In this document: one piece after another, positions 2,259-30,933 of the stretch
Position numbering within the stretch: the stretch's first letter is position 1
Layout of the letters: each line of letters begins with the position of its first letter
NCBI RefSeq assembly: GCF_035285525.1
Contig: NZ_JAYKGW010000092.1
Location: forward strand, 1 to 32,000
Length of the DNA: 32,000 bases
Direction: 5' to 3'
From: Okeania sp.
Lineage (GTDB): Bacteria; Cyanobacteriota; Cyanobacteriia; Cyanobacteriales; Microcoleaceae
Notes under the pieces: model-generated
The model's database searches: none
Told to the model about the DNA's origin: nothing
What the model saw: only the letters and a program-made list of their open reading frames with translations
Position numbers and translations under genes: made by a program

Positions 2259-2310
2259 AAAAAAACCTCCACCAACGCTAGGCAGAGGTTACTTCCAGGG
2301 TGCATCTACC
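2259..2310 (-). ncRNA. NsiR1-like small RNA, copy 3 (promoter element mutated)
   Basis: The transcript and terminator are intact, with a T7 run. The upstream hexamer is TCCAGA/TCTGGA (2340-2345) rather than TCCGGA, and a MITE lies immediately upstream in transcript sense (2360-2514). Confidence 0.4.
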
Positions 2311-2359
2311 TTTTCCTTTTCTTCAGTTCCTCTATCAACTCCAGAAAATCATCAATTTA

Positions 2360-2514
2360 CAGCGCTTTTCACTCTTGATGAACCACCGGAGCCATAATCA
2401 AAATATAGTAGGGACGTTGGATAACAAAAATGCGTTTTCCGTTCCGGAATGCTCCGCAAACATGTCGCGTAGCGATATGTCCCTACTGTGGTTTACCGTG
2501 CAGGAAAACCGCTG
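2360..2514. mobile_element. 155-bp MITE with CAGCGsTTTTC terminal inverted repeats and a TA target-site duplication, inserted in the sRNA array
   Basis: The TIRs are cagcgcttttc (2360-) and gaaaaccgctg (-2514). They are flanked by TA (2358-2359) and TA (2515-2516). Removing the element and one TA restores the unit sequence caatttaatttttcag exactly. The interior contains a GTAGGGACG...TGTCCCTAC hairpin (2408-2486). Confidence 0.7.
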
Positions 2515-2540
2515 TAATTTTTCAGTGGTTATTTGGGAGC

Positions 2541-2594
2541 AAAAAAAAACCTCCACCAACATTAGGCAGAGGTTGCTTCCAGGGTGCATCTACA
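2541..2594 (-). ncRNA. NsiR1-like small RNA, copy 4
   Basis: TCCGGA at 2630-2625, conserved core, and a 10-bp stem (two G-U pairs) with a 7-nt loop and a T9 run (A-run 2541-2549 on the plus strand). Confidence 0.6.
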
Positions 2595-2667
2595 ATTTTC
2601 TTTTTCCTAATTTTCTCTATTAACTCCGGAAAATATCAATTTAATTTTTCAGTGGTTATTTGGGAGC

Positions 2668-2720
2668 AAAAAAAACCTCCACCAACATTAGGCAGAGGTT
2701 GCTTCCAGGGTGCATCTACA
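2668..2720 (-). ncRNA. NsiR1-like small RNA, copy 5
   Basis: TCCGGA at 2756-2751. The unit is nearly identical to copy 4, with the terminator stem followed by a T8 run. Confidence 0.6.
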
Positions 2721-2766
2721 ATTTTCTTTTTCCTAAGTTTCTCTATTAACTCCGGAAAATATCAAT

Positions 2767-2887
2767 AGGACTTATGCATGAACGCTATTGGTAGGGTGTG
2801 TTTTGCGTTCCGCAAAGCTACGCGACATATAAAGCCTATCTCGTAACTAAGCAATACTCCATATATAGTGCCTTTGCGTAAGTCCTG
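2767..2887. mobile_element. ~120-bp MITE of the AGGACTTAyGCA TIR family, flanked by an ATCAAT duplication, inserted in the sRNA array
   Basis: The TIRs are aggacttatgca (2767-) and tgcgtaagtcct (-2886). ATCAAT at 2761-2766 is repeated at 2888-2893. Uninterrupted units read aaaatatcaatttaattt, which serves as the empty site. Confidence 0.7.
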
Positions 2888-3112: not shown

Positions 3113-3889
3113 TTATATTTGATGTCGGTGAATCATTGTGCCATTGGCCTGATCTGTCGGAACTACCAATAACTCACTTATATTAACATGGAGCGATCGC
3201 GTCGTACAAAAAAATACTAAGTCTGCGATATCATCTCCGGTCAAAGGTGTCAAGTCTTTGTAAACATTCTTAGCTTTTTCTGCATCCCCATGAAACCGGA
3301 CTTCACTAAATTCTGTTTCGACTAAACCTGGTTGAATTTCAGTTACTCGGACTGGAGTTCCTAATAAATCCTGTTTTAAACCCTCAGAAATTGCCCTAAC
3401 AGCCGCTTTAGAAGCACAATAAACATTACCTCCAGGATAGGCAGCACGACCAGCAATAGAACCAATATTGACTACATGACCTCGACCTCGACTTACCATT
3501 CCTGGAACTATATAACGAGTCATATATAGCAATCCTTTAATATTAGTATCAATCATTTCTTCCCAATCGTTGAAGTCGCCGAGATGGAGTTTATCTAAAC
3601 CCCGACTTAAGCCAGCATTATTAATTAAAATATCAATATTTTGCCAAGGTTCAAGTAAAGAATTTATTGCGGATTCAACTGCTAGGCGATCGCGCACATC
3701 TAGCTTTAATAAATAAACTTTACTTGGGAATTTTTTAGTTAATTCATCAGCAAGTTTTTCTAATTTTTCTTGACGACGAGCAACTAAAATTAGTTTGGCT
3801 CCTGCTTCAGCAAATATCTTGGCACAAGATTCTCCAATACCACTACTTGCACCTGTAATTAAAACTATTTGATCTTTAATAGAAATCAT
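3113..3889 (-). CDS. SDR family NAD(P)-dependent oxidoreductase (YdfG / 3-hydroxy-acid dehydrogenase-like)
   Basis: It has a TGASSGIG cofactor motif near the N-terminus, an NNAG motif, the catalytic Y-x3-K (YCASK), and a typical classical-SDR length of 258 aa. Confidence 0.9.
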   Translation of the reverse strand: MISIKDQIVLITGASSGIGESCAKIFAEAGAKLILVARRQEKLEKLADELTKKFPSKVYLLKLDVRDRLAVESAINSLLEPWQNIDILINNAGLSRGLDKLHLGDFNDWEEMIDTNIKGLLYMTRYIVPGMVSRGRGHVVNIGSIAGRAAYPGGNVYCASKAAVRAISEGLKQDLLGTPVRVTEIQPGLVETEFSEVRFHGDAEKAKNVYKDLTPLTGDDIADLVFFCTTRSLHVNISELLVVPTDQANGTMIHRHQI

Positions 3890-15100: not shown

Positions 15101-18100
15101 CTCAGTCTGCCTCTGATAGGAACACTAGAAGGTACAGCTCCTCCCTTTATCCGCAACGTTATTACTGACGTAGTAGCAGAAGTGCGGGCGATGGAGTTCG
15201 TGACTGGAGAAAAACTAGCCAAAGCCTTCACTAACTCATTTAACAACAACATCAACAATGGTGGAGCAGTAACCGTAGAAATCACCGATCTATCGAGCAG
15301 CAATATTAGCTTTAAAGTTAACGCGACAGACAAGTTCAATAACACACCCATATCTCTCGCCAGCGATTTAGGATTGCCTGCATTAGGCATTGGTATGGAA
15401 ACAAATGGTAACCTCAATGCCAACTTTGACTACAACTTCGACTTCGCTTTCGGACTCAATGACACCGACGGTTTCTATATAGATACCGCCAATACTAACC
15501 TCAATGCCAATGCCGCAGTTAAATTAAGCGACAACTTCAATGCTAAAGGTAGCTTAGGCTTTTTGCAACTGGATATGACTAACGGTATCAATGTTGCTCA
15601 AGGAGACACCAAAGGAACGGAAGTCAATGCTACTTTCGATATTGGCTTAAAAGACGCCAACAACAAACTAACCGTAACCGAATTGAAAAACTTGCGTAAA
15701 CAAGGAAAGCTATCGAGCATTCTTGATTATGGTTTCGCTGGGGATGCAGCTTTAGACGTGGATGTAGTTACCTCAGTCAAAGGCAGCACAGCATTACCAT
15801 CTTACAGTTTCAATCTCTTTAGTGACTTACCGCTGTTCAACTATACCAATGCAGCTCAACAACCACCTCAACCCACAACCGTATCCATTGCCGGATCGAC
15901 TAATGTCAGCATTGAAGAAAAAACGGCTAAGTCAATTAACATCAGCATTGCCGACAACGGTAACAATAAGCCTAACGAAAATATCCGACTGCCAAAAGGC
16001 ACTCAGTTAGTCTTCACCTGGGGTAACAATAATCAAGAGACAGCCATCATAGATAAAACTGTCACCATCGCTGAAGGTAGCATCGGTGCAGCCTTAGTTA
16101 AACTGAAAAGTGATAACGTCAAAGACAACAATAAAACAGTAACCATTAATAGTAATGCTAGTGCCAAGTTAGAAGCAGGTGCATTTAATATCGCTTTCAA
16201 TAACATGACCTTAGACTTTGGTAGCTTTGTTACCGGAGTAGTCAGCCCCGTAGTCGATTTCCTTGCCAACGTTGTCGAACCCATTACCCCTGTAGTCAAT
16301 GCCCTCAACGAGCCAATAGGTTTCTTCAACGACGTCGGTTTAACATCAGAATTTGACCAAAACGGCGACGGACAAGCAAATATTATCGAAGTCGCAGGCA
16401 CTATTATCGAAAAACTGCCTTCTCGTGGTGGTAAAGCCAAAATTGATTACATCCAATTCTTCGATGCCATTGTCGGCGTCACTGAGTTAGTCGGAGCAGT
16501 GAAAGACTTGCAAAGTAGCCTCGGAGCTGGAAACAACTTTGCTATCGACTTTGGCAGCTATACCCTACAAAACTTCCAAGGTGCTTCTCCCACCACCAGC
16601 GCTGCTGATGTCAACCCCCAAACCCAAGGCAGCAGTCAACTCAACTCTAATACCAGAAACCAAAGCCAAAATAAAGGTTTGGGCAAACAAAGCCTTTCTC
16701 AAAAGGTTGATAAAATGTTTGGCGCCTTAGACAAACTCGGTATTAGCATCCCCGTCTTGGAAGACCCCTTCACTGCTATCAACCTCTTCCTGGGCAACGA
16801 CATCGACTTGATTACCTACGATATGCCAGCCTTGGATATCCAATACGAAATTAATAACAAGTTCACAATTCTAAATTTACCGCCAGTAGATGGATTAATT
16901 CAAGGTGAATTTTCCGTGTTTTCAGATTTAGTCTTCGGTTTGGATACAGTAGGTTTCAGCGCTTGGGAGAAAACAGGATTCGACCCAGCTCAAAGCTATC
17001 TAGTCTTAGACGGTTTATACCTCAGTGATGTAGACCCCAATACGGGTGTAGATGTGGATGAGCTTTCCGTCGATGCTACAATGGCAATAGGAGCCAAACT
17101 GAATGCGGTAGTTGCTTCGGCTACAGTTCTCGGTGGCATCACGGGTGAAGTTGGTTTGGATGTGGTAGATATCGGGGAATACACCGGACAAAGCGATGGT
17201 AAGATTCGGGGTTCCGAAGTGTTCTCACGGATTAGTAATCCTTTGAGTCTGTTCGAGTTAGCAGGTTCCATTGAAGCATTCTTCCGGGCTATTGTGAAAG
17301 TCGGAGTAGATTTAGGTTTCTTTGAAATCACCAAGACAGTTTACGATAAAGAATTGGCTCGCGTTCCCATCTTTGAGTTTGCTCTGGGAGGTGCCCCAGG
17401 TGGTGGCGGTAGTACAGGTGGCGGTAGCGGTAGCAATGCCGGTACTGCTGCTAGCGGTTATATTGAGGGAGGGACAGTATTTCTGGATACTAACTTTAAT
17501 TTAGCACCAGATCCCCTAGAACCGAAGACAACTACGGACGAGTTAGGAAACTATAATCTGGAGTTTGAACTGGCATTATTTGATGCCAATGAAAATGGCA
17601 AAATAGATGATGATGAAGGTCAAATTGTGGTAGTTGGTGGTACAGATGTAACTACTGGTTTGCCTCTAGCTATTTCTCTGGTTGGTAATGCCACAACTGG
17701 CAGTGTGGTGACACCTATTACTACCATTAAAAATGGTTTGGAACAACTAGGTTTAGATGTGAAAACTGCCAACAAAATCCTCAGTAAAACTTTGGGATTA
17801 GATTCAGACTTAGACGATTTCGATGCTTATGAAGCGCAAGGAGAAGACTTGACGGTAGGAGTAAATACAGCTCTATCTCATATCTTGCTGCACAGTTTAA
17901 CAATTAACGGTGCTGCCTTCTTAAAAGGCGCTGGTTTTGATGGCAATGCTGCCGAATCTGCGAAAATTTTAACCGATGCAATTGTTAAAAAATTAAGCAC
18001 GGAAGATGAGGTGGAATTAGAAGAAAAAGCTGATATTGAAGCTATTTTCAATTCTGCTCTTCAGGAGATAGGAATAGATTCTGTCGATCCCACAACTGTG

Positions 18101-19963
18101 AGCAATGTTGCTACTTTAGTAAGTGCTTTTAATGATTTCATGGAGGATTTATTAGAGATTGAACAGGAAGATGATGATGACGAGGATGAGGACGAGGGAA
18201 ATAAACCAAAATCTGTAAATGATATCATACCAACCATCACTCCTTTCAAAAATTTATTGTTAGGAGATTTACCAGAATTGACGGAACGATTAACTCGCGG
18301 TGAGTTAACTTTAGAGGAAGTTTATGAGAGTTTAGATTCTAAATTAAACCAGACTGGTTATCAGTTGCGAGTAGTAGAAGAAGTCGAGGGAGAAGATGGG
18401 GAAATTGAGATTGAAGTTGAGTTTATCATCGAAGAGATTACCCAAGGTGCAACAGGAAAAATTGCTAATATTCAGGGAGGTACAGTTTTCTTAGATACCA
18501 ACTTCAATGAAAAATTCAATGGCAAAGACACTTCTACTGTAATAGAGAAATCCGGTAAATTCGTTCTTGATTTTGAGAATGCTACCTACGACAAAAATGG
18601 TAATAATAAGGTTGACAGCGACGAAGGTCAAATAGTAGTTATCGGTGCGGTAGATGCTCTTACTGGTGTAGCTTTAAATGTTCCTTTAGTTGCTAATGTA
18701 GCATCTCCCGATGTGGTTTCTGGTTTAACTACTCTTAAAGTCGGTTTGGAACGCTTGGGAATTACTTCTTTGGAAGCAGGCAAGATTATTAACCGCATCT
18801 TTGAATTAGCAGCAGAAGATTTAGAGAGCTTTAATCCTTATAAGGAGAAAGGAGATGATTTTGATGAGGGTATTGATGGTGTAAGAGCAGATATTTTGAT
18901 TAAGAGTCTGTTGGTTCACGGCGATACTTTATTGAAGAATGCTGGTTTTAGCGGTAATTCTTTTGATGTTGTTCTTGAGGGTATTGCACAGAAACTCAAT
19001 TCTGTTGGTAATAATTTCCGCTTGAATAATACTAATCGCATCCGACAGGTTTTTGAGGAGATTTTGACCGTTGCTGAGGTAACTGTGGAGCCAGAAGTTG
19101 TAGAAACTGTGGCTGAGTTAATTAATTCCTTTAATAATTCAATAGGGAATATCTTGGAGGAGAAAAAAGACCGACAGGAGTCCGTTGTGAATCGTTCTCT
19201 CGGTCAAATTGCACCTCTACAAGAGATGCTGTTGGCAGAGTTGCCTAAAGTTACTCGTCGTTTAACCCGTGGAAATATGACTGTAGAACAGGCGTTTGAA
19301 TCTGTTGAGTCTCAGTTGAGCGAACGCGGTTTCGATTTCATAGTCAAGAATAATGGTAAGACCGAGATAGACTTTACCAACCAAGAATTGAAAGGTAATG
19401 CAGAAGACGATACTATCAACGGTAGTGGTGGTGACGATACTATCATCGGCGGTTTCGGTAACGATATGTTGCGTTCCCTTGGTGGCCAAGATGTTCTGGA
19501 AGGCCGTCCAGAAAACGACCATTTGTTAGGTGGTTCTGGGGACGATGTCCTTAATGGGGGTATCGGCCGCGATCGCCTGAATGGTGGTCTGGGTAAAGAT
19601 ACTATGACTGGTGGGGCAAGTATTGATCGCTTTATCTTCGCGATAAATGGAGAGTTTGATGATGAGTTGATGGGTAGTGATCGGATTACTGACTTTAATC
19701 CTGGTCAGGATATTATCTTGTTGGATAAAGATACGTTTACTGAGTTGGAGAGCAATTCGGGAACAGGTTTCAGCGTACAAACTGAGTTTGCATCTGTTAC
19801 TGAGGGAGTGAGAACTTCTGAGGCGTTAATTGTTTATAACAGTAATAATGGCAGGTTGTTCTACAACCAGAACGGTAGTGAACCTGGCTTTGGTGAAGGT
19901 GGTGAATTTGCTGTGTTAGCAGGCAAACCCGATATTAGTGCTGAGGATTTCTTTGTGAGGTAA
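6104..19963 (+). CDS. Giant multidomain RTX / type I secretion-type exoprotein (putative adhesin): LamG x3, Calx-beta, FG-GAP/VCBS propeller, beta-sandwich modules, RTX repeats
   Basis: A 4619-codon ORF. Its frame is already open from 5978 and encodes the rest of the Calx-beta domain that begins in ORF 5184-6026. The C-terminus has GGxGxD nonapeptides (GSGGDDTIIGGFGNDML...GGSGDDVLNGGIGRDRLNGGLGKDTMTGG) followed by a typical cyanobacterial RTX tail (...LFYNQNGSEPGFGEGGEFAVLAGKPDISAEDFFVR). There is no N-terminal signal peptide, as expected for T1SS substrates. Confidence 0.92.
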   Translation: MTALSDAVVEGDENVKITLLSGTDAFGGTYNLANNREVLSLNGTTDYVEIPDANAIDFTKDQNFTVESWVKVDPSQNTEADIFEKWSGPGGYPYVIRLDGSTGKINAARYDGSRNPSIVSTATLNDAQYHHIAFVKEGSVLKLYIDGKLDGTTTDTTTGNTQNSSPLFVGQRGDNSNRFNGEVDELRIWNISRTQNEIRQNMYGSLTGNEVGLAGYWSFDSGSVNGNTITDLSSNNNNGTLNSSNNKALLTTGTAPLNLDSFVNYDNIYPAISRGSATLTSSTQVTGQVNHYMELGGNATTDLAFAGTANYTIAAWVKPDGEGTIVGKHNSGVIGSHFLRVQNDGRIQAHREVSPWELVSDTAIPFGQWSHVATTYDGATLKIYINGQLSGSRAFGAQVSTDTQTPVIVGARQSSGNPIDILPGSIDEVQIWNKALSETEIQNAQGRSISGNESGLVGYWDFNASDSSGASVVDLSGNGYNGTVKAEVADLTYIGHYSNGGRLSFNLSGRTLSSTPNVIGTLTSVLTDNPEPSFFIQSSDPSVSFFVEDSSAYQAGIAFSDRFGDQITANNAIVADSQGEATFQVKLTSQPTNNVTINLTSGSGTLNNNSLTFTPNNWDTYKTVNVTGLGATFNNFNVSASVTSNDSKYSSLSNSTLGVIDSTPRDTTKIKVTEGAVEQDIPPIIATVSASQDAQEGQPEPGQFTVNLSDIAPQGGYVVPYKVSGGTATEGTDYNVTTSDNNTKLGKSLNLDGQNDYLEIPDTNAIDFAKDQNFTVESWVQADPNQTPGGNTDRDIIEKWSGPGGYPYVIRYDRNNGKIVAARWDGTNGPAIVSTKTLNDGQYHHIAFVKDGSALKLYIDGQLEGTTTDTTTGNTQNNSPLFIGNRGGVANHFKGKVDELRIWNVARTEAEIQDSLNATFTGNETGLVGYWNFNNDSGTTATDLTSNNNDGTLKNGASLVDSSIGLLKIDAGQTSTNIGIEAIDNQIAQGDKTVTVAIERSNPASQATLNIKDDEKAGIEFAQLSKTATIEVPAIKLEVTTAYNSSTGAIGLKIAQGAQSYTFAADTTITFTNGVEIIIPAGTTLSNNAATVTVAQNLGSIPIAETSTTENRLLDVGILSYNEDSNGNVTANVQVRLTQRPAGNISVTLTDANGSDSAIFNFTNTNWNKYQQTNASNFLQLTSANNAVALTAKVGNANTINLPLSANVVATPLGNINTGTGNQLITTEGERIEFTATKAYDANAGTVEIELFNRSSDYTLTADQVIVFNNGTQARVTTDTALKLGQAKAVPVTLTQGTAIPVNQEGSVVLPSGETTVAVRLSSQPTSGNVGLDLTIDNSREGKFKSNNTQAETLTFTQQNWNQYQEVTVKGEDDLLVDGNITYNLNVKGQNGNADSNYKGTLLQSISITNEDNDRTPDPTQTTNNFNQPPIIADLTADKTQIDENGGKVIATFKLNKPAPVGGLNIEYEVISETASTSQDLQTPFVFVENNPLSMADRIPPANLASTNGDYLPSIVPVFVDWDQDGDLDVFGGEYAFFKPAYTEGITYYENTGDKNNPVFVQRTGAQNPLSSIVNIDAPAPAFIDIGNDGDLDVFIGDVDGQIHYFENTASGFVKRTGANNPFNSINGGDPARRFPLTPTFVDIDADKDLDFFAVYRDGIARDTVVFFENNGGNFVQRTGADNPLNGKGSIDGAVKFGDLDNDGDFDAVFDGVYGTVYYRNIGNAINPVFEISEQLSPFRGLGLNIFGRLDLVDIDNDNQLELFVGYRNVAFYEQLSYQNPLTVNIPEGKSQATVEIRAMDDAIVENKENFTVRLIDRNDESDVNETLTLEVTENYQVYTPPGSQSFSSNSVGLQIKQSSTLPKNLVTTDNRFKITNAFDSVNKKVTLDINNASGSIAIPAGETLTFKNGTVVEVSTATTVQAGSPQVVNVVLKEVPPYSIPLGTQLTFNDGSKVTVAETISISAFNSTSVQVQAQSDTALQPNTGDTTKLSRSNQLRTFVNVDVTSAYDGSTDSNLQLKLNESQLNKFTLKQGTEISFNNGQTIVTVGSDTEINPSTATAVPVTTTSATKTIAANQSTTASTPFEAQITILDNDTPGVRVTTDLASKNVVSGTFNTTEAGGEQTFYSRLESEPLEPVSVFVGSSKKEEGLLDGKEVIELQFDRTNWNIPQAFTVKGVDDLIQDGNVAYNLKTTVESRGDLNYREGAIDIDVLQGLNNGKVQLELNELNIEKAQLPQGTKLNFSNGTVATVGQTVTLDNDETNTPVDVSVTIEPNTLGFGATSSNGSWQVSEAYNHGLKQVELRNTTGNPITLTKNQTIKFNNGGELRIDADITIAENSRDLAKATLTTNPNTLPLLAVGTTNNNGNFEVTTTYNNTQKQLGLKNTTGTAKNLKTGDIISFTDGTSFIVTTDVTIAANSTSKVSGALEVSGLTTSFIKDISPDINLSNTDNDVAGLVLVNVEEIAAKEGVSNNFYKVELKTEPTDTVTVVMTPSDDQIALEGKLPGEPLTITYDATNWNVPQTIGVTAVDDFEVEFDHTTNIAFDTSNSADSVYAGLNVSNAGVKVNIIDNDLPTASVLSVAGAIEANAPGYFTINLDKPLPDKFDDTGLKINYTVSGTADTNGVSPTDDLQPIATGSARIAPGESRTPLIAFPIDDFKAEGTPLEVVGAYNGTSISLKVKNGVSLDNPATSVVENTVTLKAGTKLTFSNGAIGTVGSDVTFNQTGNKAVNITKAPESSKALNTIAVADTTRIASETVIVEVTAGNGYQVSSDENIATLEIEDNDIPGVRVVEASERTTVTEGEAPAQYFISLLTEPTADVTINIAPVQKTRNLTVTKDLSGGVVELKVNDPKVNSLLLPVGTVLNFGGGKTATVAADTFVGSKGNSVNVNTVSGSITTGNTTTYSYQELSSTNSLTFNSNNWYQLQPVNVTGLDDNVAEVGNTHEATLEYTITSGDSDYNNLKVPAQIIDIKDRPFDPNTTASSLTQGLLTFQESLDTLSLPLIGTLEGTAPPFIRNVITDVVAEVRAMEFVTGEKLAKAFTNSFNNNINNGGAVTVEITDLSSSNISFKVNATDKFNNTPISLASDLGLPALGIGMETNGNLNANFDYNFDFAFGLNDTDGFYIDTANTNLNANAAVKLSDNFNAKGSLGFLQLDMTNGINVAQGDTKGTEVNATFDIGLKDANNKLTVTELKNLRKQGKLSSILDYGFAGDAALDVDVVTSVKGSTALPSYSFNLFSDLPLFNYTNAAQQPPQPTTVSIAGSTNVSIEEKTAKSINISIADNGNNKPNENIRLPKGTQLVFTWGNNNQETAIIDKTVTIAEGSIGAALVKLKSDNVKDNNKTVTINSNASAKLEAGAFNIAFNNMTLDFGSFVTGVVSPVVDFLANVVEPITPVVNALNEPIGFFNDVGLTSEFDQNGDGQANIIEVAGTIIEKLPSRGGKAKIDYIQFFDAIVGVTELVGAVKDLQSSLGAGNNFAIDFGSYTLQNFQGASPTTSAADVNPQTQGSSQLNSNTRNQSQNKGLGKQSLSQKVDKMFGALDKLGISIPVLEDPFTAINLFLGNDIDLITYDMPALDIQYEINNKFTILNLPPVDGLIQGEFSVFSDLVFGLDTVGFSAWEKTGFDPAQSYLVLDGLYLSDVDPNTGVDVDELSVDATMAIGAKLNAVVASATVLGGITGEVGLDVVDIGEYTGQSDGKIRGSEVFSRISNPLSLFELAGSIEAFFRAIVKVGVDLGFFEITKTVYDKELARVPIFEFALGGAPGGGGSTGGGSGSNAGTAASGYIEGGTVFLDTNFNLAPDPLEPKTTTDELGNYNLEFELALFDANENGKIDDDEGQIVVVGGTDVTTGLPLAISLVGNATTGSVVTPITTIKNGLEQLGLDVKTANKILSKTLGLDSDLDDFDAYEAQGEDLTVGVNTALSHILLHSLTINGAAFLKGAGFDGNAAESAKILTDAIVKKLSTEDEVELEEKADIEAIFNSALQEIGIDSVDPTTVSNVATLVSAFNDFMEDLLEIEQEDDDDEDEDEGNKPKSVNDIIPTITPFKNLLLGDLPELTERLTRGELTLEEVYESLDSKLNQTGYQLRVVEEVEGEDGEIEIEVEFIIEEITQGATGKIANIQGGTVFLDTNFNEKFNGKDTSTVIEKSGKFVLDFENATYDKNGNNKVDSDEGQIVVIGAVDALTGVALNVPLVANVASPDVVSGLTTLKVGLERLGITSLEAGKIINRIFELAAEDLESFNPYKEKGDDFDEGIDGVRADILIKSLLVHGDTLLKNAGFSGNSFDVVLEGIAQKLNSVGNNFRLNNTNRIRQVFEEILTVAEVTVEPEVVETVAELINSFNNSIGNILEEKKDRQESVVNRSLGQIAPLQEMLLAELPKVTRRLTRGNMTVEQAFESVESQLSERGFDFIVKNNGKTEIDFTNQELKGNAEDDTINGSGGDDTIIGGFGNDMLRSLGGQDVLEGRPENDHLLGGSGDDVLNGGIGRDRLNGGLGKDTMTGGASIDRFIFAINGEFDDELMGSDRITDFNPGQDIILLDKDTFTELESNSGTGFSVQTEFASVTEGVRTSEALIVYNSNNGRLFYNQNGSEPGFGEGGEFAVLAGKPDISAEDFFVR
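10660..11400 (+). other. FG-GAP/VCBS repeat region (probable beta-propeller) within the giant protein
   Basis: Motifs recur roughly every 60 aa: VDWDQDGDLDVFGG, FIDIGNDGDLDVFIGDVDGQIHYFENT, FVDIDADKDLDFFAV...VVFFENNG, FGDLDNDGDFDAVFDG...YYRNIG and LVDIDNDNQLELFVGY. Each is followed by F(V/E)xRTGAxNP. Confidence 0.8.
17456..19350 (+). repeat. Intragenic tandem duplication of a ~300-aa module (17456-18380 and 18461-19350) preceding the RTX block
   Basis: Both copies run GGTVFLDTNFN...(D/N)xNGKxDxDEGQIVVxG..D..TG..L, then a helical region (LEQLGL/LERLGI ...NGAAFLKGAGFDGN/GDTLLKNAGFSGN), then ...LTRGELTLEEVYESLDSKLNQTGY / LTRGNMTVEQAFESVESQLSERGF. Copy 1 contains an acidic run, EQEDDDDEDEDEG. 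Confidence 0.8.
19391..19650 (+). other. RTX (hemolysin-type Ca-binding) nonapeptide repeat block
   Basis: Roughly eight consecutive GGxGxDxLx-type nonamers, read directly from the translation. Confidence 0.9.
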
Positions 19964-21792: not shown

Positions 21793-22857
21793 ATGACTAA
21801 TAAAAAAATTAAATTGTTAATCGCAGCAAGTGGAACTGGTGGACATTTATTTCCAGCGATCGCCACTGCTAATCAATTAAAGGATTATCACATCGAATGG
21901 TTAGGAGTTCCTGACCGTCTAGAAACTAAGTTAGTTCCATCCCAATACCCTCTCCATACTATATCAGTTGAAGGATTTCAACAGAAATTGGGTTTAGGAA
22001 CTTTCAAGATTTTAATTCGACTTATTCGCTCTATCTTGCGGGTAAGAGGGATATTGAAGCGGGGAAAATTTCAAGGGTTATTTACCACAGGGGGTTACAT
22101 TGCTGCTCCAGCAGTTATTGCAGCTCGGACTCTAGGTTTACCAGTTATTCTCCATGAATCTAATGTTTTACCAGGAAAAGTGACACGCTGGTTTAGTCGT
22201 TTCTGCAGTGTCGTAGCAGTAGGGTTTGAGGAAGCAACAAAATATCTTCCTACTAAGAAAACTGTGTATGTGGGTACTCCTGTCAGAGGAGAATTTTTAT
22301 CTAGGAAGCCTTTAGACTTACCTATTCCAGAAAATGTTCCCGTCATTGTAGTTGTTGGAGGTTCTCAAGGAGCAGTGGCAATTAATCAATTAGTCAGAGA
22401 ATGTGTTCTAGCATGGGTAGAAACTGGAGCTTGGATTATTCATCAAACAGGGGAAAATGATCCTAATGCTTTTAGTGTGGAGCATCCCCAATATTTTCCT
22501 ATGGTATTTTATCAAAATGTAGCTGGTTTATTTCAGCGGGCTAATTTAGTAATTAGTCGTGCTGGAGCCGGTAGTTTAACAGAATTAGCAGTTACTCATA
22601 CACCATCAATTTTAATTCCTTATCCTTATGCTGCGGATAATCATCAAACTTATAATGCTAAGGTTTTTTCTAATCAGAATGCTGCCCTAGTTTTTAATCA
22701 AGCAGAATTAACTGCAGAAAAGCTTAAGACTGAAGTTTTAGAGTTATTAAAATCACCAGAAAAGTTAAAAGAAATGACTGTAGGAGCAGCAAATTTAGCA
22801 GTAGAAGATAGTGCTAAAAAATTAGCTAATTTAATTCATAAATTTTTGCATAATTAA
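21793..22857 (+). CDS. murG: UDP-N-acetylglucosamine--N-acetylmuramyl-(pentapeptide) pyrophosphoryl-undecaprenol N-acetylglucosamine transferase
   Basis: It has the N-terminal G-loop IAASGTGGHLFPAIATA, a 354-aa GT28 length, and C-terminal motifs GGSQGA and ISRAGAGSLTELA, which are characteristic of MurG. Confidence 0.95.
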   Translation: MTNKKIKLLIAASGTGGHLFPAIATANQLKDYHIEWLGVPDRLETKLVPSQYPLHTISVEGFQQKLGLGTFKILIRLIRSILRVRGILKRGKFQGLFTTGGYIAAPAVIAARTLGLPVILHESNVLPGKVTRWFSRFCSVVAVGFEEATKYLPTKKTVYVGTPVRGEFLSRKPLDLPIPENVPVIVVVGGSQGAVAINQLVRECVLAWVETGAWIIHQTGENDPNAFSVEHPQYFPMVFYQNVAGLFQRANLVISRAGAGSLTELAVTHTPSILIPYPYAADNHQTYNAKVFSNQNAALVFNQAELTAEKLKTEVLELLKSPEKLKEMTVGAANLAVEDSAKKLANLIHKFLHN

Positions 22858-23171
22858 TATGTAATAATTGAGCTATTAACAATCAGTTATCAGCTTTATT
22901 ATAACAATTTATCTGGGAATTTTCTAGAGATAATAGTAGCAATAGTAGCGGAAAATGCTGTATGATAATTTTTAACACATAGAAGAAACTAGATTTGATA
23001 TGATCAAAAAAAAGTCGATATTAGCAGCAAACGTATAATTGGAATTGAAAAAAAAATAAGCTGACAAACCTCCCCTTTCAAGGGGATAAAAAAATCAACT
23101 TCAATATTTCAAGCTTCTGGCTGAAGCTAGAGGTACTGATAACTGATAACTGATAACTGAAAAGGTGGGAT

Positions 23172-23432
23172 ATGGCAGTTTTACAACAATCTCCTTGGTA
23201 TCAACAAATCTGACAAGAAGGAATTTTAATTGGTGAGCAACGAGGTGAACAAAGAAGAATACTTTCTGGAATAGAAATAGGATTAGAATTTAAATTTGGG
23301 GAATTAGGAAAACAGATATTTTCAGAAATTAATACTATTGAAAATATTCAGGTTCTAGAAACAATTCTTAGCTCTCTTAAAACTGTAGAAACTATTGATA
23401 AATTAAGGCAAATTTATCAACCACATTCTTAA
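23172..23432 (+). pseudogene. Remnant of a DUF4351 / Rpn-family (putative transposase-nuclease) C-terminal domain gene with an in-frame stop
   Basis: My translation is MAVLQQSPWYQQI*QEGILIGEQRGEQRRILSGIEIGLEFKFGELGKQIFSEINTIENIQVLETILSSLKTVETIDKLRQIYQPHS*. The SPWYQ-I-xEG...GEQRGEQR...FGEL...L pattern is typical of cyanobacterial DUF4351 tails. The TGA at 23211-23213 interrupts it, and the large N-terminal nuclease part is missing. Confidence 0.5.
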
Positions 23433-23587
23433 ATATAGATTGCATCTCAATGCCTGAATAAAGGCAAAAAATTATCACTTTTAGGGAACAGGAAATAGAG
23501 AATAGGTATGAAGCAAAAAAGTATTTTTGCAAATATTTAAGATGTACCCTAAATATAGCAATACTAAATAAGTTGTAAAATTTATCC

Positions 23588-23621
23588 TAGGGGTTTGATA
23601 TCCAAACCCCTACATTTTTTT
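23588..23621 (+). terminator. Intrinsic terminator-like hairpin with no annotated gene upstream
   Basis: TAGGGGTTTG atatc CAAACCCCTA (10-bp stem), then CA and a T7 run (23615-21). It lies ~155 nt downstream of the DUF4351 remnant and ~165 nt upstream of the MscS start. Confidence 0.5.
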
Positions 23622-23785
23622 CTCACGAATGATTTTATATTTCTGTAATATTTAAACATTTAGCCGTTGACTATTAGCGAAAAAGCCGATCTAGCTCATC
23701 AAATGTGAAGCTTTATTAATTTTTGGGAAAACCCGCCCCTAAAAATTTAGTATTAATACATTTCATTCAATAGCATTTTTTAACT

Positions 23786-25864
23786 ATGAATATGTGGCAT
23801 AAACATTTGTGGCTAAAGTTGCAAAAAATAGCAAAATATGAACCAGTAACAGTAAGTTACCTGAGAATAACACATAGTTCCTTAGATTTTCCTAGAAGCA
23901 GAAGAATCCCAACCAGGCAAATTTTCAAAATATTAATCATTGCTAGTTTAATAATATCTTTACTATTTTTCATAGTACCAACCTGGGCGCAAAGCAATGA
24001 TAATTTAGAAACAGCTCCAGTAGAATTAAATGGTAAAGAATTGTTTGAAGTAGCAGGTCATAATGGAACAAATTTGACTGCTATGGAACGAGCTGCAAAT
24101 ATTAGTTCCAAATTAGAAAATTTCTCCAGTTCAGGTAAACCTATAAGCATAAATATAGATCGAGAAAATAAACAGTTTATTCTGCGTATTAATAATGACT
24201 ATCTAGTAACTATAACTGCTGGAGACGTGAAAGAAGGAATAAACACAGAAGAGCAAGCAGCTATCTGGAAATATAAAATTGAACAAGCTTTTAAATTTGT
24301 CAAAAAAGAGAGTCAGCCTCGCAATATCTTCATAATATTATTAATCAGTATTTGTTTGATTTTGGCAGCCTTCGCCCTAGAACTTTTTTTAAAATGGTTT
24401 GAGTTTCAAATTAATCATATTTGTGAGCAAAAATATCCTCAATTTGTCAAATTTTTACCAAAATTTTTACCAATTATTGGGGTTTCTATCAGAGTAATAG
24501 TAGGCATAGGAATCACTCTTTATATCACTTATATAATACCATTTACTCGTGGCTATCGCGAAGAACTATTACGAATTTTGTCTGATAGTTTTACTTCTCC
24601 TATTTTTAATTTAGGCAACAAAGGTCTTTCTATTATTGATGTGGTGTTTTTAACTGCATTAACTATTGGAATGTGGAAAGGAGTTGGGTACTTTATTGAG
24701 ATATTTAGAACTAAAATTATTAGTTTAACAGGAGCAGAACGAAGTGTTCAAGATACAATTAGTTTTTTAACTAGATATGGATTGATTTTTCTAGGCATAA
24801 TAATTATCCTACAACTTTGGGGTGTAGATATTAGTTCTTTAGCTATTATTGCTAGTGTTCTTGGTGTAGGTATTGGTTTTGGTTTCCAGAATATTGCTAA
24901 TAATTTTATGAGTGGTATTATTATAATTTTTGAGCGACCAATTCAAGTGGGTGATTTTATTGAAGTAGGAAGTTTAGTTGGTGTTGTTGATAAAATAGGT
25001 TTGCGTAGCACTCACATTACAACTTTAGATAAAATTTCTTTGATTGTTCCTAATTCTCGATTTCTAGAAAATGAGGTTTTAAATTGGAGTCATGGCAACC
25101 CTATTTCTCGGATAAAAGTACCAGTAGGAGTTGCTTATGGTTCTAATATTAAGTTAGTGAGAAAAGCTATTTTAGAAGTAGCAAAAAGTCATCCAGAAGT
25201 TTTATTACATCCCTCTCCTCAACTTTGGTTTCAAGAATTTGGTGATAGTTCTCTGAATTTTGATTTATTAGTTTGGACGAGAGAACCCAAGAAACAATAT
25301 CAACTCAAAAGTGAGTTAAATTATCGCATCGAAGCTAGTCTACGAAAATATAATATTGAGATTCCTTTTCCTCAAAGAGATTTGCATTTAAAGTCTCCTG
25401 AAATTCAACAAATGATTGATACTTGGATGCAGAAAAATGCTCCTCCTGAAGTAGAAATTTGTTATCCGGAAAATGTTCGATTTAATTTAAGAAATAATGT
25501 TTATAAGTCACATATAGGAGCAGGAAAAGAAAATCATACTAAAGTATTAATTAAAGATGATATTAACCATCAAGAAGTAAAGACAAATGAAGATATAGAT
25601 ATATATAAATTAGTTGCAGAAATGCGTAGTCCAAATGGAATATCAATTAAAGAACGTCAACATCGGTGGGATGTTTACTCTAAATGTTTTGTGGGTTCTG
25701 AAGCTGTAGATTGGTTAATTAAAACTCAAAAAATGAATTTGAATGAAGCAATTTCTATGGGTCAATTATTAATAGACCGTGGTTTAATTCATCATGTTAC
25801 TAATAAACATGGTTTTAAAAATGAGTATCTTTTCTATCGTTTTTATGAAGATGAACAATATTAA
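23786..25864 (+). CDS. Mechanosensitive ion channel (MscS family) with a C-terminal DEP domain
   Basis: The MscS pore and beta-domain core is GVDISSLAIIASVLGVGIGFGFQNIANNFMSGIIIIFERPIQVGDFIEVGSLVGVVDKIGLRSTHITTLDKISLIVPNSRFLENEVLNW. Several TM helices lie upstream. The last ~85 aa (nt ~25601-25861), IKERQHRWDVYSKCFVGSEAVDWLIKTQKMNLNEAISMGQLLIDRGLIHHVTNKHGFKNEYLFYRF, fits the DEP-domain consensus closely. Confidence 0.9.
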   Translation: MNMWHKHLWLKLQKIAKYEPVTVSYLRITHSSLDFPRSRRIPTRQIFKILIIASLIISLLFFIVPTWAQSNDNLETAPVELNGKELFEVAGHNGTNLTAMERAANISSKLENFSSSGKPISINIDRENKQFILRINNDYLVTITAGDVKEGINTEEQAAIWKYKIEQAFKFVKKESQPRNIFIILLISICLILAAFALELFLKWFEFQINHICEQKYPQFVKFLPKFLPIIGVSIRVIVGIGITLYITYIIPFTRGYREELLRILSDSFTSPIFNLGNKGLSIIDVVFLTALTIGMWKGVGYFIEIFRTKIISLTGAERSVQDTISFLTRYGLIFLGIIIILQLWGVDISSLAIIASVLGVGIGFGFQNIANNFMSGIIIIFERPIQVGDFIEVGSLVGVVDKIGLRSTHITTLDKISLIVPNSRFLENEVLNWSHGNPISRIKVPVGVAYGSNIKLVRKAILEVAKSHPEVLLHPSPQLWFQEFGDSSLNFDLLVWTREPKKQYQLKSELNYRIEASLRKYNIEIPFPQRDLHLKSPEIQQMIDTWMQKNAPPEVEICYPENVRFNLRNNVYKSHIGAGKENHTKVLIKDDINHQEVKTNEDIDIYKLVAEMRSPNGISIKERQHRWDVYSKCFVGSEAVDWLIKTQKMNLNEAISMGQLLIDRGLIHHVTNKHGFKNEYLFYRFYEDEQY

Positions 25865-25907
25865 TAATTAATTATTAATTATTAGGGCTTCCTGATTTAA
25901 TCTGGGG

Positions 25908-25946
25908 TAGAAACCCGGGGTTTCTTTAAGAAACCGGGTTTCTTTG
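25908..25946 (+). terminator. Paired GAAACC(C)GG-GGTTTC hairpins downstream of the MscS gene (terminator-like; member of a dispersed repeat family)
   Basis: Two short GC-cored palindromes, tagaaacccggggtttctttaagaaaccgggtttctttg, each followed by TTT. They begin ~45 nt after the stop codon. Confidence 0.4.
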
Positions 25947-26393: not shown

Positions 26394-28076
26394 ATGGCTA
26401 CTCAATTTCCCTGGCTAACAACCATAGTGCTTCTGCCTCTTCTGGCAGCCCTAATCATACCCCTCATACCCGATAAAAACGGAAAAACCATGAGATGGTA
26501 TGCTCTAGGAGTAGGTGTTACAGACTTTGCTTTAATGTGCTACACGTTCTGGAACCACTACAATGCTAGCGACTCTGGTTTTCAACTCGTAGAAAAATAT
26601 GCTTGGCTCCCTCAAATAGGATTAAGTTGGGCAGTCTCAGTAGATGGTTTATCTATGCCACTGGTGCTTCTAGCTGGCCTAGTCACAACACTTTCAATGT
26701 TCGCAGCGTGGCAAGTAGACTATAAACCACGTCTTTTTTATTTCCTAATGTTGGTCTTATACTCCGCCCAAGTAGGGGTGTTTGTAGCTCAAGATCTAAT
26801 GTTACTCTTCATCATGTGGGAACTAGAATTAGTTCCTGTTTACCTACTCATATCAATTTGGGGTGGTCAAAAGCGTCGGTACGCTGCAACTAAATTCTTG
26901 CTCTACACAGCAGCCGCATCTATATTTATTCTCGTGGCAGCTTTGGGAATGGCCTTATACGGTGGTGGCGATATTACCTTTGACATAGTGGAACTGGGTC
27001 TGAAAGATTATCCACTAGCTTTTGAACTTTTAATGTACGCAGGATTACTAATTACATTCGGTGTTAAGTTAGCCGTATTCCCTCTACACACATGGCTACC
27101 TGATGCCCACGGCGAAGCTTCTGCACCTGTGTCGATGATTTTAGCTGGTGTTTTGTTGAAAATGGGTGGATATGGATTAATTCGCCTCAACTTAGAAATG
27201 CTATCTGATGCTCATGTTTACTTCGCTCCAGTTTTAGCAATTTTGGGTGTAGTAAATATTGTATACGGTGGGTTAAATTCTTTTGGTCAATCTAACATGA
27301 AGCGCCGTTTGGCTTACTCTTCTGTTGCTCACATGGGTTTTGTGTTATTAGGTATTGCTTCTTTTACTGACTTAGGAGTAAGTGGAGCTTTACTACAAAT
27401 GATTTCTCACGGATTAATAGCAGCAGTATTATTCTTCCTTGCAGGTATAACTTACGACCGTCTCCACACTTTAGCATTAGACGAAATGGGTGGTCTTGGT
27501 CAAGTAATGCCAAAAGTATTTGCTCTATTTACTGTCAGTGCCATGGCATCTTTAGCTCTTCCTGGAATGAGTGGTTTTGCTAGCGAACTAATGGTATTTG
27601 TGGGCATGACTAGCAGCGATGTTTACAGCTCCACATTCCGCACAGTGACAGTATTTTTAGCAGCAGTTGGTCTGATATTGACTCCAATATATCTACTCTC
27701 AATGTTGCGTCAAATGTTTTATAGCACTGGTCATGCACCAGCTTGTTTACTGAAGGATACTCCTTACGAGAATGAGATTTTAGATGAGGCAGTTTGTTTC
27801 GGTACTAGCTGTGTGATACCTGCAAAAGCTGTTTATACCGATGCCAGACCAAGAGAAGTAGCGATCGCTGCTTGTTTCCTAGTATTGATTATCGGTATTG
27901 GTTTATATCCGAAGATAGCAACTAATATGTATGATGCCAAGACTGTAGCAGTAAATACTCAAGTAAGAGAGTCATACACATTTGCCAAAGCTAATCCTCA
28001 ATTGTTTGCTAAAAGAGCTTTATTCCCCAGGATTCCTGAGTCTGAAGTATTATCAGTTTCTGGTGTGATTAAATAA
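26394..28076 (+). CDS. ndhD: NAD(P)H-quinone oxidoreductase (NDH-1) subunit 4, NdhD (D1/D2-type)
   Basis: The N-terminus [35 protein letters not shown] resembles plastid and cyanobacterial NdhD. It has antiporter-like conserved stretches ([46 protein letters not shown]) and is a 560-aa polytopic membrane protein. A candidate promoter is TTTACA 26325-30 with TAAGAT 26349-54. Confidence 0.93.
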
Positions 28077-30332: not shown

Positions 30333-30360
30333 GTAGGGACGTTCCATGGAACGTCCCTAC
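30333..30360. repeat. GTAGGGACGTT ccatgg AACGTCCCTAC palindromic repeat
   Basis: A perfect 11-bp arm palindrome. It overlaps the 5' extension of ORF 30346-30933, which argues for the downstream start at 30394. Confidence 0.75.
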
Positions 30361-30393
30361 TCCTCTATAAGTCCCATTCTTACTACATTTTAT

Positions 30394-30933
30394 ATGAAAA
30401 AATTTTCTTTCTTACTTCTACCTTTTTTATTATTTGCCACTCCTTCTTTAGGTATTGAGACAAGAGATGGTAAGGTTTATTTTGCTCAACCACCTCGTTT
30501 GGTTAAAGCGGTAACTACCCGAAGCGAAACTTATGTCTGGGGTGCTACTTATTATTTTACTCTCAATTTATTGCCTGATGCTGGAGTACCACTCAAACAG
30601 GTGACTATTAGTAACAATGATAGTCTTGGGGATATTCGATATAACCCAAGAGAAATAATTGCCTTTGAAGGAAATCATCGAAAAAATGGTGAACAGTTGA
30701 ATATTGAGGATGTTGTAATAGACAGGAAAACTAATAGTGTCTCTGTAATTTTCAATCCTCCAATACCTCCAGGGAAAACTTTTACTATTGGTTTGCGTCC
30801 AGTACGGACTCCTGGATATGGGGGGGTGTATTTATTTGGTGTGACTGCTTTTCCTGTGGGAGAAAAATCTTATCCTTATTTTCTTGGGTATGGTAGACTT
30901 CATTTTTATAGTGGTTATGATCATTATGATTAA
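30394..30933 (+). CDS. DUF2808-like cyanobacterial secreted protein
   Basis: The start at ATG 30394 gives MKKFSFLLLPFLLFATPSLG, a signal peptide. The body (YFAQPPRLVKAVTT...YYFTLNL.PDAGVPLKQVTIS...IAFEG...VSVIFNPPIPPGKTFTIGLRPVRTPGYGGVYLFGVTAFPVGEK...FLGYGRLHFY) matches my recollection of the DUF2808 family. Confidence 0.65.
   Translation: MKKFSFLLLPFLLFATPSLGIETRDGKVYFAQPPRLVKAVTTRSETYVWGATYYFTLNLLPDAGVPLKQVTISNNDSLGDIRYNPREIIAFEGNHRKNGEQLNIEDVVIDRKTNSVSVIFNPPIPPGKTFTIGLRPVRTPGYGGVYLFGVTAFPVGEKSYPYFLGYGRLHFYSGYDHYD

Follow-up and report, generated by a model that had tools for sequence, protein, structure and literature searches.

An MscS-superfamily channel of Okeania with a C-terminal DEP domain on a disordered tether, and a tentative role for the domain in lipid binding

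The gene and its product

The window analysed here is a stretch of 32,000 nucleotides of Okeania sp. DNA. The gene under study is a single open reading frame of 692 codons without internal stops (Table 1), and its C-terminus is the sequence cited in an earlier, sequence-only reading of this DNA. We conclude that it encodes a presumably heptameric channel of the MscS superfamily, with an MscK-like pore and vestibule and a cytoplasmic DEP domain carried on a disordered acidic tether. All homologues in the alignment begin at the second methionine (M3), and thus the ATG at 23792 is likelier to be the true start than the first ATG at 23786.

Table 1. Positions of the channel gene, its domains and the flanking transcription signals in the window.
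Feature	Position	Strand	Basis
Terminator-like hairpin, 10-bp stem and T run, ~175 nt upstream of start	23588..23612	+	Consensus scan, pattern match only
Whole gene, MscS-family channel with C-terminal DEP	23786..25864	+	ORF, Pfam, homologue alignment
Hydrophobic segment aa 47-69, signal peptide or anchor	23924..23992	+	Hydropathy 2.93; family consensus; model helix 42-59
Extracytoplasmic alpha/beta domain aa ~70-187	23993..24346	+	Alignments; full-model pLDDT ~90-96
Membrane domain aa 188-385	24347..24940	+	Hydropathy, model helices, MS_channel_1st
TM3 pore helix aa 352-385, motif LGVGIGFGFQ	24839-24940	+	Hydropathy, model, MscK alignment
Cytoplasmic vestibule aa 386-538: beta and alpha-beta domains, terminal PFPQRDLHLKSP barrel strand	24941..25399	+	Pfam, phmmer, Foldseek
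Amphipathic helix aa ~538-551, then disordered acidic tether aa ~556-599	25400..25591	+	Model pLDDT; family linker statistics
DEP domain aa 603-692, with three helices, a basic beta-hairpin between the first and the second, and a C-terminal beta wing (HHV...FYRF)	25592..25861	+	Pfam, PDB matches, model
Basic beta-hairpin aa 622-636, IKERQHRW...	25649-25693	+	Conserved K622, R624, R625, R627
Two overlapping terminator-like hairpins, 37 nt past stop codon	25901..25935	+	Consensus scan, pattern match only

In the window and its relatives the gene is preceded by MurG and followed by an NdhD-like gene. A consensus scan found three terminator-like sites, where 1.5 +/- 1.4 would be expected by chance. 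There is a weak indication that the transcript ends at the overlapping hairpins beyond the stop codon, and the upstream hairpin, itself a pattern match only, may separate the gene from upstream transcription. The upstream gap also holds the remnant of a 72-aa open reading frame with no Pfam match, which we take to resemble a DUF4351-type tail.

A basic tail of ~45 aa, specific to an Okeania/Dapis/Trichodesmium-like clade, comes before the hydrophobic segment near the N-terminus. The segment had been described as a signal-anchor. Since it ends in PTWA|QS (family consensus P..AQ), it may be a cleavable signal peptide instead. The extracytoplasmic domain that follows spans ~118 aa rather than the ~170 aa first proposed; the larger figure had also taken in the hydrophobic segment and the cytoplasmic tail before it. 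Its motif, APVxLDG..LF.V...TA.ERA..IN, is kept throughout the aligned cyanobacterial branch of the family. When modelled alone the domain reached a pLDDT of 87.7 and a pTM of 0.77. It gave no significant PDB fold match in Foldseek (best E 0.57) and no Pfam match in hmmscan.

The membrane domain comprises two extra TM helices followed by MscS TM1, TM2 and the pore helix TM3, for a total of five. With the N-terminus outside, hydropathy and the AlphaFold2 model both indicate a cytoplasmic DEP domain, in line with the assumption of the sequence-only reading. Within the core, the Pfam models MS_channel_1st (residues 328-368), MS_channel_2nd (369-436) and MS_channel_3rd (443-526) each scored above cutoff in hmmscan. 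Searches of the PDB with phmmer matched MscK, MscM and MscS at E values of 1e-46 to 1e-28, with MscK 7uw5 the best (E 1.4e-46). The AlphaFold2 monomer model, with a core pLDDT of 80-96, ranked MscK, MscS and YnaI highest in Foldseek, and the best 50 matches were all MscS-family structures. V361 and F365 align with the gate residues L105 and L109 of MscS. The pore helix motif, the beta and alpha-beta domains and the predicted protomer fold place the protein in the MscS superfamily, and the MscS pore and cytoplasmic domain recognised in the first reading are borne out by Pfam, phmmer, Foldseek and the model alike. Like its relatives, the channel would be expected to open under membrane tension and to act as an osmotic release valve.

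Between the end of the core (~538) and DEP helix 1 (~606) lie ~66 aa, a length compatible with the ~80-aa linker proposed earlier. About 45 of these residues are predicted to be disordered, and AlphaFold2 gave a pLDDT below 50 for residues 554-597. Among 115 homologues the linker ranges from 32 to 108 aa (median 61) and carries a median net charge of -6. The disordered acidic tether itself is ~45-60 residues long.

The C-terminal domain was identified as DEP by several independent routes, in full agreement with the initial assignment. In Pfam hmmscan, residues 618-686 matched DEP (PF00610) over the whole profile (1-72/72) with an E value of 3.7e-22 and 78.5 bits (cutoff 32.7). A chance match to DEP can be excluded, as a plain sequence search with the segment also recovers solved DEP domains, namely P-Rex1 DEP1 (domain E 5.8e-15), DEPTOR, Epac2, Iml1 and GPR155. 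BLASTP aligned the domain with human P-Rex1 DEP1 at 42% identity over 71 residues. Finally, the AlphaFold2 model of the segment (pLDDT 92-98) has the predicted order H, E-E, H, H, E, E, which is the DEP topology.

Spread of the MscS-DEP architecture

The MscS-DEP architecture is widespread among bacteria of several phyla and is not rare. All 360 best matches, pooled from three database searches, combine MscS with DEP, and they represent 297 distinct clusters at 90% identity. The family has two branches: a long cyanobacterial one, to which the window protein belongs, and a shorter one with names from Acidobacteriota, Margulisiibacteriota and Deltaproteobacteria. Public Pfam pre-annotation already flags the combination. 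The named hosts include Trichodesmium, Okeania, Crocosphaera, Coleofasciculus, Moorena, Lyngbya and Trichocoleus, which we take to be organisms of marine, mat and crust habitats, presumably with strong osmotic swings.

This distribution also bears on whether the fusion is an artefact, with two genes joined by an error of assembly or gene calling. That explanation is refuted because the fusion is conserved: it is present in 67 of the 80 retrieved species genomes, which are independent of one another, and it recurs in each of the distinct protein clusters. The window gene also reads through in one frame without stops, and DEP-less siblings (L067) end cleanly after the channel core. We therefore assign an artefact a vanishingly small probability. 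In a separate locus (L004) a free-standing DEP reading frame proved not to be an independent gene: it is a duplicate of the channel gene's 3' end, next to an inserted cassette. A tblastn search for plasmid-borne DEP gave no match among 72,556 plasmids. A DEP-only search of 1.84 billion representatives gave a ranking dominated by multi-DEP proteins and thus unsuited to counting MscS-DEP proteins.

The sequence-only reading had believed this architecture to be rarely discussed, and had held that its novelty would be lowered if it were already common and characterised. It is common, but no paper that connects DEP with a mechanosensitive channel of bacteria was found in the searchable literature, where DEP domain and cyanobacteria are mentioned together only incidentally. 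The suggestion that such channels are rarely discussed stands in that sense.

Bacteria withstand osmotic down-shock mainly by means of MscS-family channels. To our knowledge, the individual regulation of many MscS paralogues is largely unknown. Here a whole widespread MscS subclass bears, on a flexible tether, a eukaryotic membrane- and partner-docking module that is well understood. MscS-DEP proteins offer a testable handle on channel regulation, a simple prokaryotic system for what DEP recognises, and a bearing on the origin of the eukaryotic P-Rex/DEPTOR-type DEP.

Possible roles for the tethered DEP domain

We tentatively favour a reading in which a putative lipid-binding hairpin of the DEP domain tunes channel gating or placement, while holding it to be somewhat short of an even chance. 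The seven tethered DEP domains would act as peripheral membrane-binding modules, with the basic hairpin reaching back to the anionic inner leaflet beside the channel. Reversible lipid engagement could then bias gating, by way of portal access, inactivation or the tension threshold; alternatively, it could confine the channel to a certain part of the membrane. Either way, solute release would come to depend on lipid composition or surface charge.

Support for this reading comes from eukaryotic domains, among which P-Rex1 DEP1/2, DEPTOR and Epac2 are the closest solved relatives. P-Rex1 DEP domains have membrane-binding loops (reviewed in PMC11668296), and the Dishevelled DEP domain favours anionic lipids via helix 3, a finger (R429, R431, W433) and a loop (PMC11776049). 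In our alignment IKDRRRKLS of P-Rex1 pairs with IKERQHRWD of the window protein, and we infer that the basic hairpin corresponds to the RRRKLS hairpin of P-Rex1 DEP1 and to the Dishevelled finger. The equation of hairpin with loop depends on our taking the Ser of RRRKLS to be Ser436 of the P-Rex1 membrane-binding loop. The basic hairpin positions K622, R624, R/Q625 and R627 are conserved in 83%, 98%, 58% and 76% of 115 family members, respectively. The sequence-only reading had suggested that lipid or partner binding might control gating, and this hairpin together with the disordered tether lends that suggestion indirect support. The retention of the fusion in all 360 best matches and in most of the genomes also counts in favour of the lipid-binding reading.

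Several observations count against lipid binding. Over the same 115 members the DEP domain is net negative overall (median -4), unlike a classical polybasic membrane binder, and the hairpin of the window protein is less basic than the family consensus, with Q625 and H626 in place of R and Y. The distance from the bottom of the vestibule to the membrane is estimated at ~70 A, which a tether of 32 aa, the shortest length in the family, could span only with strong extension. Furthermore, eukaryotic DEP domains also serve as protein-docking modules and as latches.

Under the first of these other functions, DEP would bring a signalling protein of the cytoplasm or membrane to the channel, or the channel to that protein, such that gating or a non-channel output would be set by protein-protein contact rather than by lipids. 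Eukaryotic DEP domains dock proteins, and P-Rex1 DEP1 binds the DH domain. The genomic neighbourhood is consistent with docking in one cyanobacterial clade, where a gene for a membrane-anchored FHA-domain protein is conserved directly upstream on the same strand (20/80 loci) and is accompanied in 15 of the 20 by a divergent Ser/Thr kinase-TPR gene further upstream. This arrangement is confined to that clade, however, and neither the window nor its relatives show it; no neighbour gene is conserved in every one of the 80 loci. A precedent is the cyanobacterial MscS-like protein PamA, whose cytoplasmic or C-terminal region binds PII (PMC6243067; PMC8042125), although the link to PamA is unsupported, with no Synechocystis protein among the 240 best cyanobacterial matches. 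We regard partner docking as rather unlikely.

A second function would be intramolecular, with the DEP domain docking on its own vestibule, at the side portals or under the beta-barrel, as an autoinhibitory or inactivating latch or plug that a signal releases. P-Rex1 DEP1, the closest solved relative, is an autoinhibitory latch on a neighbouring domain. In the channel, the length of the tether allows the DEP domain to fold back, and the amphipathic helix between barrel and tether is conserved. The tether is nevertheless variable in length and sequence and predicted to be disordered, which fits a free domain better than one fixed in a docked position, and we consider a latch improbable.

A role in clustering, in which DEP-DEP self-association or binding to separate multi-DEP proteins would gather channels into patches, appears more improbable still. 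It draws on family members with two tandem DEP domains (P0028) and on small TM-anchored proteins with two to three closely similar DEP repeats (P0179 and P0194). An example of such self-association is the domain swapping of Dishevelled DEP.

A more speculative proposal, which we consider improbable, concerns the origin of DEP. MscS-DEP would be a widespread ancient class of channel whose DEP domain senses lipid or surface charge, and the eukaryotic P-Rex/DEPTOR/Epac-type DEP would descend from this bacterial module, possibly cyanobacterial or endosymbiont-derived. If this were true, the ancestral task of DEP would have been docking onto the membrane beside a channel.

Comparison with known systems

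The best match to the pore helix and vestibule, in both sequence and fold, is to E. coli MscK (KefA) and MscM. The pore motif LSVGL(G)FGLQ of MscK corresponds to LGVGIGFGFQ here, and in both cases the MscS core comes after additional TM helices and an N-terminal part outside the cytoplasm. MscK and MscM, each with 11 TM helices and a large periplasmic domain, are ~1100 aa long, against 692 aa for the protein described here, which has five TM helices and a ~118-aa periplasmic domain without detectable similarity to theirs. The NCBIfam models for MscK (215 bits, cutoff 991) and MscM (141 bits, cutoff 809) align only over their last ~220 residues, and by this measure the protein is not an MscK/MscM orthologue. 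Additionally, the MscK matches in Pfam and NCBIfam stop at the channel core, and DEP is not part of them.

The bacterial cyclic-nucleotide-gated (bCNG) channels, reportedly described by Caldwell in 2010 and by Malcolm and Maurer in 2012, share the overall design: an MscS core is joined by a linker to a C-terminal domain that binds a ligand or partner and presumably modulates gating. In bCNG channels this is a cNMP-binding domain, whereas here it is DEP; Pfam hmmscan gave no cNMP_binding match at E<=1, which sets the protein apart from the bCNG channels.

PamA-type proteins bind PII and release it in response to ATP and 2-oxoglutarate. We considered whether the family might be PamA (Sll0985) itself and dropped the idea as unsupported, with no Synechocystis entry among the 240 best cyanobacterial matches or the 80 genome loci, for queries that included Xenococcaceae and Crocosphaera members. 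PamA probably represents a different MscS subfamily. PamA of Synechocystis PCC 6803 is likewise a cyanobacterial membrane protein of the MscS family, and it binds a signalling protein through its cytoplasmic or C-terminal part (PMC6243067; PMC8042125).

Among eukaryotic proteins, P-Rex1 DEP1 shares with the domain described here the IKDRR... hairpin and the motifs CF.G.E.V.WL, GQ.L...G.IHHV and F.YRF, and the fold predicted for it is that of the DEP domains of P-Rex1/2, DEPTOR and Epac. A PKA-type RRxS site is missing from the window DEP. In contrast to P-Rex1/2, DEPTOR and Epac, the host here is a prokaryotic ion channel, which ends in a single DEP domain borne on a disordered tether. MscS channels with appended cytoplasmic domains are known, and the variant described here has DEP as the appended domain.

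An MscS core with a C-terminal DEP domain

The channel gene is a single uninterrupted ORF (23786..25864, +) of 692 aa, and the C-terminal sequence quoted in the sequence-only reading is the true end of this frame. Pfam hmmscan of the protein returned four significant matches with no overlap among them. The MscS pore and cytoplasmic beta-domain recognized in that reading were borne out by three MS_channel domains and by matches to MscK, MscM and MscS. Its proposed C-terminal DEP domain was recovered by PF00610 (E 3.7e-22, 72/72 profile positions) and also by phmmer, in which the C-terminal 90 residues, compared with every PDB sequence, matched DEP-containing proteins exclusively. The best of these were P-Rex1 and P-Rex2 (both DEP domains), DEPTOR, Epac2, Iml1 and GPR155/LYCHOS, with scores falling through Dishevelled, pleckstrin and RGS7. 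In BLASTP, human P-Rex1 DEP1 and the channel DEP share 42% identity and 70% positives over 71 residues, a striking identity to a human DEP domain. Because the PDB phmmer and P-Rex1 BLASTP results agree with Pfam, the combination of MscS and DEP is confirmed far beyond chance, and the DEP call is independent of any single model. On the features tested, the protein belongs to the MscS superfamily and its DEP domain is bona fide.

The layout of the protein was drawn from hydropathy, two family alignments and an AlphaFold2 model built with 115 homologues (mean pLDDT 79.5), all in agreement. Since the homologues in the family alignment all begin at the window protein's second Met, nt 23792 is the likelier start; residue numbers here run from the first ATG. 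The hydrophobic segment would serve as a signal peptide or as an anchor. Modelled alone, the extracytoplasmic domain reached pLDDT 87.7 and pTM 0.77; hmmscan gave it no Pfam match, and a Foldseek search for structural neighbours in the PDB gave none that was significant (best E 0.57). It may represent an as yet undescribed type of extracytoplasmic sensor fold. The DEP domain is cytoplasmic because the N-terminus lies outside and five TM helices follow, and its modelled elements are arranged in the DEP topology (helix, beta-hairpin, helix, helix, strand, strand). Together, the results describe an intact MscK-like MscS core with a genuine DEP domain held in the cytoplasm on a disordered acidic tether.

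Features of the window, of the channel protein (aa) and of related loci
Feature	Position	Strand	Remarks
AraC-type regulator	871-1881	+	
Short-chain dehydrogenase	3113-3889	-	
Separate Laminin_G_3 protein	5184-6026	+	280 aa; precedes giant ORF
Giant ORF	6104-19963	+	4619 aa; three Laminin_G_3/ConA-like domains, FG-GAP-like repeat, C-terminal RTX calcium-binding repeats
MurG-type glycosyltransferase	21793..22857		upstream neighbour of channel gene
Upstream gap	22858-23785		930 bp, ~30% GC, no ORF of at least 60 aa listed
Terminator-like hairpin	23588-23612		~175 nt upstream of start; strong; pattern match only
N-terminal tail	before aa 47		basic, specific to window's clade
Hydrophobic segment	aa 47-69		ends PTWA|QS; family consensus P..AQ
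Extracytoplasmic alpha/beta domain	aa ~70-187, nt 23993-24346	+	conserved, confidently modelled
TM helices			five; last three are MscS TM1-TM3
MS_channel_1st	aa 328-368		Pfam hmmscan
MS_channel_2nd	aa 369-436		Pfam hmmscan
MS_channel_3rd	aa 443-526		Pfam hmmscan
Vestibule	to aa ~527-538		runs to PFPQRDLHLKSP strand
Short amphipathic helix	aa ~538-551		
Tether	aa ~556-599		pLDDT <50
DEP domain, modelled	aa ~603-692		pLDDT 92-98
DEP (PF00610)	aa 618-686		78.5 bits, gathering score 32.7
Terminator-like hairpins	25901-25935		37 nt after stop; pattern match only
NdhD-like Proton_antipo_M protein	26394..28076		downstream neighbour of channel gene
DUF2808 protein	30346-30933	+	
FtsH-type protease, C-terminal part	31181-31939	-	Peptidase_M41 + AAA lid
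DEP-less sibling	L043:2059-3810	-	
FHA-clade loci	L001, L003-L008, L010, L012, L013, L016, L017, L028, L033, L036, L039, L044, L048, L060, L065		

Distribution and genomic setting

Searched against 5.8 billion proteins, the window protein gave 4652 matches, and all of the best 120 of these (120/120) carry PF00610 and MscS domains. Named sources among the matches listed are cyanobacteria throughout, with Okeania, Dapis and Trichodesmium members at 71-75% identity and those of Symploca, Moorena, Lyngbya, Coleofasciculus, Geitlerinema PCC 7407, Leptolyngbya and Trichocoleus at ~42-46%. With a Crocosphaera watsonii member as query, DEP was present in 120/120 matches listed. Scanning a single genome for each GTDB species turned up 332 relatives. 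One locus with the fusion, L068 (5154-6686), comes from an Acidobacteriota MAG, on a contig of 67% GC, and has no periplasmic domain. As query it retrieved a second, shorter branch (P0353-P0472; ~500-545 aa, also without this domain), with DEP in 120/120 matches listed and with Acidobacteriota, Candidatus Margulisiibacteriota and Deltaproteobacteria as the named sources among them.

Since MscS-DEP recurs across the matches listed, in two branches and, with core and DEP in one reading frame, in 67 of the best 80 of the 332 loci, we conclude that the fusion is a widespread, selected bacterial architecture. That it is an assembly artefact is excluded by its conservation, and we give that explanation practically no credence. 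The architecture had been taken to be rarely discussed. This stood as regards discussion: the searchable literature, with subscription-only papers outside its scope, contains no paper on a bacterial MscS channel with a DEP domain, its searchable part joining mechanosensitive channels and DEP domains holds nothing on bacterial channels, and for DEP domains and cyanobacteria it offers incidental co-mentions only. The architecture itself is not rare, with 297 distinct 90%-identity clusters among the matches listed in all searches together, besides the 67/80 loci. Source annotations pass over the DEP domain ("mechanosensitive ion channel", "potassium efflux system protein" and similar).

DEP-less siblings share the periplasmic domain and core and end shortly after the core (L067, L069-L071, L074 and others). 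In Crocosphaera sp. XPORK-15E, DEP-bearing and DEP-less copies both lie within 4 kb. One channel from the searches (P0028, 801 aa) has two tandem DEP domains. At L004:8178-9369, the stretch of ~90 codons that ends the channel gene and encodes its DEP part occurs a second time ~1 kb downstream, and the copies flank two small inserted genes, which run in the opposite direction; a separate DEP gene was rejected here, as this looks like duplication from an insertion event.

The channel gene looks monocistronic, given the terminator-like hairpins on both sides. Within the upstream gap, a run of (CTGATAA)n-like repeats lies near 23136-23160; an ORF-like remnant at ~23203-23432 (~72 aa) gave no Pfam match. 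The MurG-type/channel/NdhD-like arrangement is also seen in Okeania and Dapis loci.

Elsewhere in the window, five tandem copies of NsiR1 (nitrogen-stress-induced sRNA, Rfam RF02399) lie at 2012-2721 (-) with ~125 nt spacing; their scores of 42-50 bits exceed the gathering score of 39. NsiR1 arrays are known from heterocyst-forming cyanobacteria; the window, by contrast, resembles the Okeania/Trichodesmium/Dapis group. Two ORFs overlapping the array (2300..2623 and 2430..2768) are probably spurious. The product of the 4619-aa ORF, which has a strong A-over-T skew along most of its length, is probably adhesin-like and either secreted or located at the surface, and the FtsH-type ORF as listed is probably N-terminally truncated through start-codon choice.

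Possible roles of the DEP domain

Across 115 homologues, the linker between core and DEP has a length of 32-108 aa, with a median of 61, and a net acidic charge (median -6), and the whole DEP domain is slightly acidic (median -4). The first hairpin strand stays basic (K622 83%, R624 98%, position 625 58%, R627 76%), and conservation extends to R614, R665, K678 and R685. The family consensus IKDRRYR aligns with IKDRRRK(LS) of P-Rex1, whose DEP domains have membrane-binding loops (PMC11668296, a review of P-Rex regulation); since RRRKLS is a PKA-type site, the P-Rex1 membrane-binding loop would be this hairpin. The Dishevelled DEP domain prefers anionic lipids, with contacts through helix 3, a hairpin "finger" (R429, R431, W433) and a loop (PMC11776049).

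We tentatively propose that the channel is a tension-gated osmotic valve whose seven DEP domains would bind, through the basic hairpin, to anionic inner-leaflet lipids next to the channel, and that this engagement would tune the gating or placement of the channel. The MscS vestibule is ~70 Å tall. By our own estimate at 3.6 Å per residue, the disordered tether of 44 residues would have ~160 Å of contour length, so the membrane would be reachable for the DEP domain; on the same estimate the shortest family tethers (32 aa) would be tight. That the DEP domain instead acts as an intramolecular latch or plug, akin to the P-Rex1 DEP1 latch, seems improbable to us, and DEP-mediated clustering of channels very improbable.

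A docking site for a signalling partner is a rather unlikely alternative, to which synteny in one clade lends some weight. In 20/80 loci (Coleofasciculus, Moorena, Xenococcaceae and some Leptolyngbyaceae), the gene directly upstream of the channel, on the same strand, encodes a conserved FHA-domain protein of 190-220 aa that carries a TM anchor at its C-terminus, and in 15 of these 20 a divergent Ser/Thr kinase-TPR gene lies further upstream. This hints at a phospho-signalling input to the channel in the FHA clade only; the arrangement is absent from the window. PamA, the Synechocystis PII-binding MscS-like protein, provides a precedent for partner docking (PMC6243067, PMC8042125). However, no neighbour common to the whole MscS-DEP family was found, which counts against a docking role.

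A DEP-only search of 1.84 billion cluster representatives yielded 2852 proteins at the E<=1e-3 level (P0179, P0194, P0216, P0208 and many others), 972 of them at E<=1e-10; its upper ranks consist mostly of proteins with 2-7 DEP repeats. The list includes protist proteins (Chrysoparadoxa, MMETSP transcriptomes) and DEP fusions to kinase or START domains. Its bacterial-looking members include small TM-anchored 2-3xDEP proteins, with repeats very like the DEP of the channel, and Ala/Arg-rich ~350-aa proteins with two C-terminal DEP domains and an N-terminal half without assignment. It is a doubtful, speculative idea that DEP is an ancient bacterial membrane-sensing regulator of mechanosensitive channels from which eukaryotic P-Rex/DEPTOR/Epac-type DEP domains derive. 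The MscS-DEP class is large, cross-phylum and experimentally tractable.

Comparison with known MscS-family systems

The closest PDB relative of the core is E. coli MscK (7uw5, E 1.4e-46), followed by MscM and then MscS, and MscK also ranks first in Foldseek for the channel model. The pore motif LGVGIGFGFQ resembles LSVGL(G)FGLQ of MscK, and V361 and F365 align with the MscS gate residues L105 and L109. The protein is no orthologue of MscK: it scores 215 on the NCBIfam equivalog model, whose cutoff is 991, with the alignment limited to the core, and an MscK/MscM orthologue reading was ruled out. A bCNG channel, an MscS core with a cyclic-nucleotide-binding domain, was also ruled out, as the protein has no cNMP domain. 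With PamA it shows no demonstrable kinship. That MscS paralogues carry appended domains is to be expected in principle, and MscS-DEP is already visible in automatic Pfam annotation. The type of sensor, DEP, is new on an MscS paralogue within the searchable literature (subscription-only papers outside scope), and by analogy the channel would work as do other MscS paralogues with an appended cytoplasmic sensor.
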